Part shown: positions 56,373 to 58,447 of the stretch, piece by piece
Numbering within the stretch: the stretch's first letter is position 1
Layout of the letters: every line of letters starts with the position of its first letter
From: Exceevirus Xc38
Taxonomy: Duplodnaviria; Heunggongvirae; Uroviricota; Caudoviricetes; Schitoviridae
Virus record (IMG/VR): IMGVR_UViG_2974723840_000001
Coordinates: 15,329 to 79,328 of that record
Direction: 5' to 3' (one strand)
DNA length: 64,000 nucleotides
Notes under the pieces: model-generated
Database searches by the model: none
What the model was told of the DNA's origin: nothing
Seen by the model: the letters and a program-made list of their open reading frames with translations, nothing else
Made by a program: the position numbers and the translations under genes

Positions 56373-57196
56373 TCAGCATATCGCATAATTACTATTCCGA
56401 ATAAGATCAGCTAGGTTGTTTGATTTCTTGATGTATTTAACAGGTGACTTAGTGATCTGACCTACGATGAATTGTAGGATGTCAGATTCAGCAAGCTCTG
56501 CCATGATCTCTTTGTACCAGTAACGCACAGTGTCACAATGGTTTGGATGGGCACCAAATGAGTCGTGTACAGTAATTACTGGTGATGAACCAAGTTCTAA
56601 CATCTTACGTAAGGTAGCTTCTAACTTGATTAGTAAGTCAGTAGGAACCTTAGCAGCGTTATCTTTGGTAATAAGATCAATGATAGATACATCAAGCATC
56701 TTAGAAGCGTTGTAGATATTGAGCATGTTCTCAAGCTCTTCATCAACTAATGTAGGTAGGTAAGGTTTTCCGTGCTCACGTAACGTGATCTCGTAAACGA
56801 TACCGCTATATGCTTCAGCTACTTTGTTAGGATCGTAAGCAGCACGGCGAATAACACTACGTAATAGATATCCATCAATAGAGTGAATGGTATTTGCTAC
56901 ATTAGCTAATCCCTTTTCAGTTCCTTGGTTTATATCCACGTATGTAGTGAACGTAGCATGATTTAACTCATCTACTTCTACACGTACTTCTTTCTTCTCA
57001 AGCACTTTAATATTTACATGGAAGTTATCAGGCATCACCCAGTTGTGACTGAGAGCACCTGCTTGCCATGTATCTAGTAATGCACTCATTAGCTCGAATG
57101 CTGCTGGAGCAATAGCGAATGCTGCTTGATAGAATGTAGCTAGTAGTTCACCTTCACCAAATACTTCTTTAGGTACTAAGGTAGAACCATAACCAG
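56373..57196 (-). CDS. N4-like RNA polymerase II large subunit, exon 2 (T7-like RNAP C-terminal palm).
   Basis: T7 motif C VITVHDSFGAHPN is present. The upstream in-frame extension [19 protein letters not shown] aligns to T7 AYGSKEFGF (the end of motif B). There is no ATG at its 5' end, consistent with it being a 3' exon. Confidence 0.7.
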
Positions 57197-58023
57197 CATG
57201 GTGTTCTTGTAAGTTCGTTAAGCTTACAACGGAAATCCTATGTCTCTCGACATTGGCTCCTGCTATATATTTCTATATAGATCAGACTATATCTTCATCC
57301 TCATAAGAGGAGTTCTGCGCTTCCGCTCACTTGAGCGTACTCCTAGATAGGATAGTCGTTACACGTTCTGTTCAACTACACGCTGACACATAGATATAAA
57401 TTGATCCATAGTCAGTTCACCTTTAGCTCTATTAATTGCCCAAGCAACCCATTGTACGTTACCTTTCACATAACCAAGTTCAGGTACGATCTTGTCTAGT
57501 GATAGGCACTCTAATGAGCCTACTTCAACTTTTAATACAGTTTTAGCAATAGCACATAAACCATTTTGTGACTTGTACAGTTCATACAAGTAATCCTTGT
57601 CTAAATCACATTCAGGTAAACCTGATTTTTTGGTTCGTGTTTTTGCATCAGTGAGTCTTGCACCAATTGCTGAGTATAGTAATCTATCCTCTTTAGGAAT
57701 CTTAGTTAGCGCACCAGAACCCCTATAATTAGGGTTCTTCTTACGCCACTCTCTAGCTTTTTCAGCTAAACATTCCTTACATTGGTAAACCTTATGTTCT
57801 TTGTAGGCATTCTCATTAGATGATTTGCCAAACTGATCAATAGGTTTCTCAACATTACACTTGGTGCATATTTGTGTGATATTCATAACTTCAAACTCTT
57901 AAGTAGGTTATGAATAGTTTAACAGCTTCGCACGGGATTGTCTTCGTCTTTCACGGTCAGAGGTTCCCCGTTTTCACAGAATTGCATATATCTAGTTACC
58001 TAGATAGTGACCCCTTTAGGTTA
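57197..58023 (-). ncRNA. Group I self-splicing intron (about 827 nt) with an internal HNH homing-endonuclease ORF, interrupting the RNAP II large-subunit gene in motif B.
   Basis: P1 pairs exon UGACCU| with the intron IGS GGGUCA (intron nt 11-16), giving a U.G wobble at the splice site. P/Q-like (P4) elements are present (GAAAACGGGGAAC and AAUCCCGUGCG). P7 is present (GACUAU at about 57351-57361, AUAGUC at about 57283-57293). The S element AAGAUAUAGUC is present. The intron ends in G at 57197. Splicing restores [15 protein letters not shown] with the T7-like K(+8)Y spacing. Confidence 0.7.
57359..57886 (-). CDS. Intron-encoded homing endonuclease (HNH / His-Me finger, Endo VII-like).
   Basis: N-terminal CTKCNVEK...CKEC zinc ribbon is present. 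A C-terminal LSLDKIVPELGYVKGNVQWVAWAINRAKG HNH-like beta-beta-alpha finger is present. It lies wholly inside the intron. Confidence 0.55.
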   Translation of the reverse strand: MNITQICTKCNVEKPIDQFGKSSNENAYKEHKVYQCKECLAEKAREWRKKNPNYRGSGALTKIPKEDRLLYSAIGARLTDAKTRTKKSGLPECDLDKDYLYELYKSQNGLCAIAKTVLKVEVGSLECLSLDKIVPELGYVKGNVQWVAWAINRAKGELTMDQFISMCQRVVEQNV

Positions 58024-58447
58024 AGGTCATTACAGCTCGCTTTACATCCTTACGTGGTACTTCAATCTGATTGAAACCCTTAAGCTTAAGGATCTCATTC
58101 ATCTTCTTAGTAACGTCTGTATATGCATCTGCACGTTTCTCTGTTACGAGTCCTGTAGCATCTGCACCTTTCACACAACCTGTAATAGCTGACATGATCT
58201 GAATACCAGAACACGTAGCATCAAGTTGTACGATATGACCTGTTGGTTTGCCTTCAACTACGTTACGTAGCTCATGAACTGCTTTGATGAATAATGGCTT
58301 ATCCTCTGCGGTATCAGCTAACTGCTCTAATTGAGCATAGTTATCTTTAACCCATTGGATTCGTTGCTCGAATAACCACTTATCTTTACCGTAGTGGTTA
58401 GCGATATCGATGCAAAGGTAGTCTAGAGCTGAGTATGGTTTGAACAT
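58024..58447 (-). CDS. N4-like RNA polymerase II large subunit, exon 1.
   Basis: Own RBS GGAGAAACACC. LDATCSGIQIMSAITG matches T7 DGSCSGIQHFSAML. It ends [12 protein letters not shown], i.e. in the middle of motif B (RxxxKx7YG). Confidence 0.7.

Follow-up and report, generated by a model that had tools for sequence, protein, structure and literature searches.

Group I introns of phages are classically tied to genes of DNA and nucleotide metabolism. Within the N4-like phages, an intron has been reported in the thymidylate synthase gene (PMC5746245) and others have been suspected in gp24, the DNA polymerase gene and gp43 (PMC3670811). Introns in phage RNA polymerase (RNAP) genes have been documented for the multisubunit enzymes of AR9 and PBS1 (PMC12350094), and an endonuclease was noted, with no intron called, inside the gene for the large subunit of the N4-type RNAP II (RNAP2) of Pseudomonas phage ZC08 (PMC5418858). 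Here we analysed a stretch of 64,000 nucleotides (nt; the window) that is 100% identical to Acinetobacter phage VB_ApiP_XC38 (NC_055823; Schitoviridae, Exceevirus; N4-like), hereafter XC38. Judging from its sequence, the RNAP2 gene of this phage is very probably interrupted within the codons of motif B by a mobile, self-splicing group I intron of 827 nt that carries an endonuclease gene. All XC38 coordinates are window positions, and the RNAP locus is read on the minus strand.

Exon 1 (58024-58447), which consists of 141 codons and the first base of a Ser codon, encodes motif A (DATCSGIQ) and the first half of motif B; the open reading frame (ORF) in which it lies (58016-58447; 143 amino acids, aa) ends midway in motif B. 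Exon 2 (56373-57196) supplies the remainder of motif B (SGYGS...), together with motif C (VHDSFG), and continues to the stop codon, its frame staying open upstream of the annotated ATG (57089). These reading frames, and the endonuclease ORF between them (57359-57886), were all located where the initial annotation had placed them. Exon 1 matched Pfam RNA_pol (PF00940, 2.8e-18), and on the 401 positions of PHROG 2051 (RNA polymerase) exon 1 occupied positions 1-140 and exon 2 positions 141-401. Because this alignment breaks at 140|141, the exons abut exactly on the family profile. Together with the neighbouring RNAP1 gene (the N4 gp15-like small subunit; 59152-60132, PHROG 2166, 8e-89), which is annotated in NC_055823 and sits upstream of RNAP2, these matches support the proposed identity of the host gene as that of the gp16-like RNAP2, a member of the T7-like single-subunit RNAP family.

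Joining position 58024 to position 57196 removes 827 nt and yields an ORF of 415 aa with the predicted ligated junction ...GTAATGACCT|CTGGTTATGG..., in which DATCSG falls at residues 76-81 and VHDSFG at residues 351-356. The insertion point lies within a codon, after the first base of the motif B Ser codon. In the ligated motif B seven residues separate K and Y, a spacing equal to that of T7 RNAP motif B (RSVTKRSVMTLAYGS). The spliced protein is 54-70% identical to RNAP2 of the intron-less phages Presley, nACB1 and At2, all three of which have the same uninterrupted arrangement, and it is collinear with these proteins, showing no gap at the junction.

Critically, closely related intron-less alleles exist. 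The 90%-identity cluster of the XC38 143-aa exon 1 product also holds four proteins of 415 aa (P0058, P0059, P0061 and P0067, on contigs of up to 77.8 kb) whose length and junction residues equal those of the predicted ligated product. The intron-less DNA loci L053 and L054 are exactly 827 nt shorter than XC38, within flanks that are ~98-99% identical; exon 1 of L053 differs at 5 of 424 positions (419/424 identical), and identity over the first 300 nt of exon 2 is 95-98% in the two loci. Since these alleles are 827 nt shorter and encode the same protein across the junction, the comparison of sequences confirms the predicted 58024|57196 junction at nucleotide resolution and bears out the 415-aa product put forward in the initial annotation. 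At the insertion site the intron-less alleles read gtaatgacTt|cAggCtatgg and XC38 reads gtaatgacCt|cTggTtatgg (intron-less site sequences: L053 type, GTAATGACTTCAGGCTATGG; Presley, GTAATGACATCTGGTTATGG). The three differences between intron-plus and intron-minus alleles are synonymous, lie no more than 5 nt from the insertion site and fall in XC38 bases that form P1 and the proposed P10, or in bases that the endonuclease may contact; as a sign that the enzyme cleaves the intron-less allele they are no more than suggestive. Further into exon 2, nt 301-600 (56597-56896) are 61-78% identical to L053, the flanking exon sequence being 94-98% identical; this patch looks like a mosaic or recombinant segment within the polymerase gene.

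The intron was also found at the same site in more diverged polymerase genes. In the ENA metagenome contigs L051 and L052, the intron is 94% identical to that of XC38 (778/827 nt) and the endonuclease 92% identical, whereas identity of the RNAP2 exons is only about 65% at the DNA level and 45-54% for the protein. An intron of 94% identity in exons of ~65% identity argues for recent horizontal transfer of the intron. The element therefore behaves like a mobile intron in two respects: it is present or absent at one site in nearly identical genes, and it has spread between diverged ones.

The intron (57197-58023; 827 nt) starts with UAACC and ends with a terminal G. P1 pairs the exon end UGACCU (58029-58024) with the internal guide GGGUCA (58013-58008; intron nt 11-16) and places a U.G pair at the 5′ splice site (U58024); an in-frame TAA stop codon (58016-58018) lies in the P1 loop, 8 nt into the intron. 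P2 (58006-57989) is the hairpin UAUCUAG-GUAA-CUAGAUA. P3 (57981-57975 with 57319-57313; UUCUGUG/CGCAGAA) forms a pseudoknot with P7, and P4 (57971-57966 with 57937-57932; ACGGGG/UCCCGU) encloses P5/P5a (57961-57941), assigned by hand in a region that aligns poorly. P6 (57925-57915 with 57378-57368; CUGUUAAACUA/UAGUUGAACAG; 10/11 pairs, checked by hand) spans the endonuclease ORF (175 aa, 528 nt), which occupies its loop and whose last codons overlap the P6 3′ strand and J6/7. The guanosine-binding helix P7 (57357-57352 with 57290-57285; GACUAU/AUAGUC) is followed by P7.1 (57351-57342; CCU-AUCU-AGG), seen by hand in homologues as well (CCC-GUAA-GGG, CCC-GAAA-GGG), and by P7.2 (57337-57324; CGCUC-AAGU-GAGCG). 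P8 (57311-57298; UCCUC-UUAU-GAGGA), J8/7 (57297-57291; UGAAGAU) and the 3′ strand of P7 align to the Rfam model RF00028 (Intron_gpI) with high posterior probability. The 3′ domain is completed by P9 (57280-57263; CUAUAUA-GAAA-UAUAUAG), the hand-assigned P9.1 (57253-57240; AUGUC-GAGA-GACAU) and P9.2 (57229-57207; UUGUAAG...CUUACAA). The terminal (omega) G at the 3′ splice site (57197) aligns with the terminal G of homologous introns, that of the homologue L021 being offset by one column, and is the sole position that both restores the frame and matches the intron-less allele. The S element (AAGAUAUAGUC) was found where the initial annotation had located it, and the other hallmarks read there (P1 with its guide, P4, P7 and the terminal G) are likewise present, with support from covariation in 12 homologues (below).

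The stretch that separates P7 from P3′ holds P7.1 and P7.2, peripheral elements typical of subgroup IA. Their presence marks the core as IA-type and, provisionally, as IA2-like. Two alternative pairings were dropped: UAUCUAG following P7 as the P3 3′ strand, as comparison with homologues placed P7.1/P7.2 there and identified CGCAGAA as P3′, and GGAGU/ACUCC as P8, which did not stand up to comparison with homologues.

A search against covariance models, suggested as a check in the initial annotation, gave a result that depended on how the intron was presented. At gathering thresholds, no Rfam family matched anywhere in the window. At permissive thresholds RF00028 was the only significant family (38 bits, E 6.8e-8; gathering score 50 bits). 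The 5′ half of this contiguous alignment was forced into the endonuclease ORF with low posterior probabilities and was discarded, leaving only the 3′ half as credible. Presented alone, the 5′ segment (57880-58033) matched RF00028 positions 1-134 (17.9 bits, E 0.011), with P1, P2, P3, P4, P5 and the P6 5′ strand at the places assigned by hand. The 3′ segment alone (57263-57400) matched positions 105-253 (38.7 bits, E 7.9e-9), covering P6′, J6/7, P7, an insertion (P7.1 and P7.2), P3′, P8, J8/7, P7′ and P9. Related introns with no ORF in the core score 82-94 bits on the same model. The expected family was thus recovered from each half, while the contiguous score stays below threshold because the 528-nt ORF separates the P6 strands.

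To evaluate the structure independently of the model, 12 distinct homologous introns with defined splice sites were aligned as ORF-deleted versions, and covariation was scored on the 36 pairs of the well-aligned helices P3, P4, P7, P7.2, P9 and P9.2. Across the 36 pairs and 12 introns, 99.8% of cells were paired, and 22 pairs showed compensatory changes. None of 500 shuffles equalled the observed values, and sliding the 3′ partners by 1-3 columns reduced pairing to 27-43%. P3 (seven pairs, four compensatory), P4 (six pairs, three compensatory) and P7.2 (five pairs, four compensatory) were each 100% paired; compensatory changes were found in six of seven pairs in P9 and in all five pairs of the P9.2 core. 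P7 is identical in 12/12 introns and therefore uninformative for covariation.

The MAFFT alignment of P1, P2, P6 and P8 was unreliable across subfamilies, and these helices were checked sequence by sequence. By an automatic duplex search, 11 of the 12 introns have U.G at the splice site, and the pair in phi 1 was assigned by hand. P1 covaries with the exon in several homologues (CGGCCGU/GCGGCCG, AGGCCGU/GCGGCCU, AGGCGAU/GUCGCCU). P10 fits the start of exon 2 in most of them, including L021 (CAUCG/CGAUG), where exon 2 starts one base earlier. P2 takes the forms UCACCUG/CAGGUGA in L012 and UUUCUAG/CUAGAAA in L016, and among the few differences in the 94%-identical L051 intron is a compensatory U-A to C-G change in this helix (UACCUAG/CUAGGUA). 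The homologues likewise have a long-range P6 that spans the ORF, and in L016, L019 and L021 it comprises 11-16 contiguous pairs; the automatic finder takes the longest duplex and chose the wrong register for several sequences, XC38 included. In 12/12 introns P8 is predicted as a hairpin in the corresponding place. Finally, every homologous intron has an in-frame stop codon within 6-22 nt of its 5′ splice site; such an early stop is the usual layout of phage introns.

These data bear on whether the gene could function in pieces, an endonuclease cassette having split RNAP2 into fragments that are translated apart and assemble, as reported for the split NrdA of phage Aeh1. GenBank does annotate two RNAP coding sequences (CDSs) and an endonuclease, the N4-type RNAP II is already a split T7-like polymerase (gp15 and gp16), and endonuclease insertions have been proposed as the driver of such splits (Amgarten 2017, PMC5418858). 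However, exon 2 has no start codon at the break, and a product initiated at its first ATG (57089) would be 36 residues short and lack the motif B YG. The break also falls within a codon, and the RNA between the exons has kept its group I core complete through compensatory evolution, for which a passive cassette would have no need. We therefore regard independently translated fragments as very improbable.

We give similarly little credence to a decayed intron or pseudogene, in which the ribozyme no longer splices, RNAP2 is dead in XC38 and middle transcription is supplied otherwise. This scenario draws on the Rfam score below threshold and on the doubts that two papers expressed about the function of the split JWAlpha RNAP2 (PMC3915230, PMC4193335). 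The score is explained by the ORF in P6, though, and all core helices are intact in XC38. Moreover, the exons are open and free of frameshifts, with exon 1 and the first 300 nt of exon 2 being 95-99% identical to intron-less alleles. XC38 is a viable isolate, and its genome holds one RNAP2 locus only, so that the full-length copy elsewhere, which the initial annotation had raised as a possible objection, is absent.

An assembly artefact in the XC38 record is extremely improbable, as independent metagenome assemblies again yield the identical 143-aa product of exon 1 and the 175-aa endonuclease, the 90% cluster of the endonuclease has 18 members on contigs of up to 79.5 kb, and at least eight isolated phages share the architecture. 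An intein or other protein-level insertion could be argued from the frame that the endonuclease ORF shares with exon 1 (offset 561 nt), but is excluded, as the initial annotation had concluded: the TAA at 58016-58018 parts the two, exon 2 is in a different frame from the ORF (offset 692 nt), 162 nt of non-coding ribozyme lie beyond the ORF, and a Pfam scan detected no intein domain.

The 175-aa ORF contains two CxxC pairs and the motif LSLDKIxPxxGYxxGNVQWxAWxxNRAKG. It had no sequence match in Pfam, NCBIfam or the PDB (matches to TOM70 were noise), and none of its 56 relatives from a search of 5.8 billion proteins carried a Pfam domain; it did match PHROG 1035, labelled "endonuclease VII" (8e-32). 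An AlphaFold2 model built from 32 sequences (pLDDT 91) displays a beta-beta-alpha-metal fold, which places the protein in the HNH/beta-beta-alpha-metal superfamily, closest to PacI. The canonical catalytic His is missing, its place behind the invariant Asp being taken by K, Q or R in 12/12 homologues; PacI, to our knowledge, also lacks the canonical His general base. Invariant residues are D131, Y139, N143, N152 and K155. PacI (PDB 3ldy, 3m7k) is only 14-15% identical to the XC38 protein, with no match at the sequence level, and is a restriction enzyme whereas the XC38 protein is intron-encoded. The T4 endonuclease VII family (PF02945) gave neither a sequence match nor a close structural match, only a distant one. 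Hence, of the HNH/endonuclease VII-like assignment in the initial annotation, the HNH superfamily holds by fold, while the resemblance to endonuclease VII is distant and the HNH signature lacks its His. By analogy, the ORF would encode an active HNH-superfamily homing endonuclease.

Homologues of this endonuclease (31-37% identical) were also observed within or beside the DNA polymerase I gene of the Escherichia coli N4-like phages KarlSchell_Bas89 and KBNP1711, and others in crAss-like phages. Members of this family may thus point to introns that are still unannotated. With no Pfam coverage, an unusual active site and a very conserved polymerase sequence as its presumed target, the family lends itself to biochemical work and to studies of how introns mediate competition between phages that infect the same cell.

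Several observations weigh against a mobile, self-splicing intron in XC38. The contiguous RF00028 match falls under the gathering score, and P5 and P9.1 rest on assignment by hand. P10 is non-canonical in XC38, with 5 bp (UAACC/GGUUA) offset from the splice site. The exact 24-mer of the ligated exons was absent from JGI metagenome contigs and IMG/VR. Activity of the endonuclease is not assured, because the canonical HNH His is missing. Set beside the covariation, the intron-less alleles and the transfer between diverged genes, these points leave the intron as very probably the correct explanation of the split gene.

Related elements were recovered from a wide range of phages. A tblastn search with the endonuclease (47-51% identical) identified the same layout, an N-terminal part of RNAP2 followed by the endonuclease and a C-terminal part of RNAP2, in N4-like phages of Achromobacter (JWAlpha and JWDelta), Burkholderia (HN02, HN04 and HN05) and Vibrio (pVco-5, pVco-7 and phi 1). 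IMG/VR contigs with the intron family were both N4-like (L012-L016) and T7-like (L017-L022), and the large single-subunit RNAP gene is interrupted likewise in two phages of 40-45 kb, Pectobacterium phage PPWS1 and Pseudomonas phage Drael01. In the T7-like L049 (PPWS1, 19707-22900 in the record), L050 (Drael01), L018 and L021, RNAP is split in motif B by the same intron/endonuclease family; such genes are annotated as two RNAP CDSs and an endonuclease, PPWS1 belonging to the Autographiviridae.

The introns occupy two main sites. Site B (AUG ACC U|CU GGN) is used in XC38, L012, L016 and L051/L052, and site A (GCC GU|U AUG AC), 8 nt upstream, in JWAlpha, HN04, L013, L014, pVco-5, phi 1, L018 and PPWS1; the insertion in L021 lies one base upstream of site A. 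Each insertion site is matched by the guide sequences. Site-B cores are 73-75% identical to that of XC38 and site-A cores 58-65%; endonuclease identity (39-52%) does not track the insertion site. A JWAlpha-type splice site was considered for XC38 and rejected, as XC38 exon 2 lacks the AUG AC codons and no G-terminated in-frame alternative exists. The 8-nt shift may have arisen by reverse splicing, imprecise repair or endonuclease exchange.

Other group I introns were observed in genes of this kind. In L051 (1167-1385) and L052 (551-769) there is a further group I intron with no ORF (RF00028, 90.3 bits); the exon immediately before it is 81 aa long and ends in DATCSG (motif A). Pseudomonas phage vB_PaeP_FBPa1 (L004:1725-1990) and Erwinia phage MIF8 (L003:2551-2798) have group I introns in RNAP2 (82.5 and 94.4 bits), one at the motif A site (query residue 81) and the other near residue 354 (motif C, VHDSFG). 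From these positions, RNAP2 introns of the Schitoviridae lie at motifs A, B and near motif C in different phages. Outside RNAP, a group I intron scoring 93.9 bits interrupts the terminase large-subunit gene of Bacteriophage DSS3_VP1 (Naomviridae; L008:2390-2606), with an 'endonuclease VII' ORF after it. Over 99 nt, part of this intron's core shares 84% identity with the XC38 intron, so that the intron-core family extends to a gene and a phage family that are unrelated.

By analogy with other group I introns, the XC38 intron would be catalytic and dependent on GTP. As the early transcript folds, the guide GGGUCA would pair with the exon end UGACCU to form P1, with U.G at the splice site. Exogenous guanosine bound in P7 would attack the 5′ splice site, and the freed exon 1 would then attack after the terminal G (57197), giving a ligated mRNA for the 415-aa polymerase subunit. 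The in-frame stop 8 nt into the intron would keep ribosomes off the ribozyme core. The endonuclease would cut intron-less alleles near the motif B codons, and repair would copy the intron in. RNAP II of N4 transcribes the middle genes (Willis 2002, as cited in PMC4193335). Since RNAP II makes middle transcripts, obligatory splicing of RNAP2 mRNA could gate the early-to-middle switch. We tentatively propose a wider picture, which is possible but falls somewhat short of being the likelier outcome: that these elements are the first family of self-splicing introns to be recognised in phage RNAP genes of the single-subunit (T7/N4) type, a single lineage with a His-less, PacI-like HNH enzyme that targets motif B DNA in Schitoviridae and Autographiviridae and has been re-targeted by 8 nt, and once by 1 nt, with matching guides, its splicing perhaps gating the switch.

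In the NC_055823 record no intron is annotated. RNAP2 is represented by two "RNA polymerase" CDSs (58016-58447 and 56373-57089) with an "endonuclease" CDS (57359-57886) between them, the second polymerase CDS starting 36 codons too late. The annotation should be corrected to one joined CDS of 415 aa, and the same two-CDS problem affects several Autographiviridae records. Between RNAP1 and RNAP2 (58477-59204) lie two overlapping small ORFs of 130 and 117 aa, neither of which matched a PHROG. The first (58477-58869) is annotated as a hypothetical protein and the second (58851-59204) was left unannotated in the RefSeq record; genes of 130 and 108 aa are called at this place in the intron-less relative L053.

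Directly downstream of RNAP2 is a free-standing HNH-like ORF of 197 aa (55703-56296; PHROG 1035, 4e-16), annotated as a "putative HNH homing endonuclease". The stretch 55515-56370 has no counterpart in L053, which is otherwise 96-99% identical. Its absence there marks it as a second variable homing-endonuclease insertion at the RNAP2 locus. This ORF and the intron endonuclease share weak similarity in the N-terminal zinc finger alone (E 0.001), and the idea that it is a recent duplicate was rejected on that ground. Between the RNAP2 stop codon and this ORF, the hairpin GGGGAU-UAAAAG-AUCCCC followed by UUUAUU (56311-56335) looks like an intrinsic terminator.

Our literature search, which left many subscription-only papers (the original XC38 paper included) outside it, retrieved no explicit group I intron in a T7/N4-type RNAP gene, and RNAP2 is apparently a so far undescribed host gene for a known kind of element. 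The initial annotation considered an N4-like RNAP II interrupted in motif B notable; XC38 is not alone, however, as JWAlpha, HN04, pVco-5, phi 1 and T7-like RNAP genes share the element, and the multisubunit cases of jumbo phages are published. RNAP2 would add a new class of host gene and a further example of homing elements in active-site codons. The interest of the system lies in this host gene, in the spread of the family over two phage families and in the shifted insertion sites.

Among split RNAP2 genes, those of JWAlpha and JWDelta are the nearest counterparts. Their intron core and endonuclease (52% aa identity) are homologous to those of XC38 and likewise split motif B, whereas the insertion site lies 8 nt upstream and the JWAlpha intron has no XC38-type P2. 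The two genomics papers on these phages described only 'a gene' interrupting a "divided" RNAP2, called no intron and left the function open (PMC3915230, PMC4193335). Removal of an intron at the RNA level would leave this gene intact, and the same answer would cover XC38, HN02/04/05, pVco-5/7 and phi 1.

The RNAP introns of jumbo phages are self-splicing, as that of XC38 is predicted to be, and like it they carry homing endonuclease genes within a phage RNAP gene. Those polymerases are multisubunit (beta/beta′-like), however, whereas the XC38 enzyme belongs to the T7-like single-subunit family of an N4-like podovirus, and the intron and endonuclease families are unrelated as far as they were compared. 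A different parallel is offered by the DNA polymerase introns of SPO1/SP82 and Bastille, which Landthaler and Shub (2003-2004) reportedly found to encode the HNH nicking enzymes I-HmuI and I-BasI. There, as in the XC38 family, HNH-family intron endonucleases are said to reside in phage polymerase genes at nearby, non-identical sites; the XC38 family differs in that the introns and endonucleases at its two sites, 8 nt apart, are homologous to each other.

In its layout the XC38 element is closest to the T4 td intron with I-TevI (IA2). Both have a group I core with P7.1 and P7.2, an endonuclease ORF looped out from P6 and an early in-frame stop codon; both sit in a conserved active-site region of an essential phage enzyme and show presence/absence polymorphism among related phages. 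They differ in that td interrupts thymidylate synthase and encodes a GIY-YIG endonuclease, whereas the XC38 intron interrupts a single-subunit-type RNAP subunit and encodes an HNH-superfamily, PacI-like protein, its splicing being deduced from sequence. By this analogy, the XC38 element would work like the classical introns of the T-even phages.

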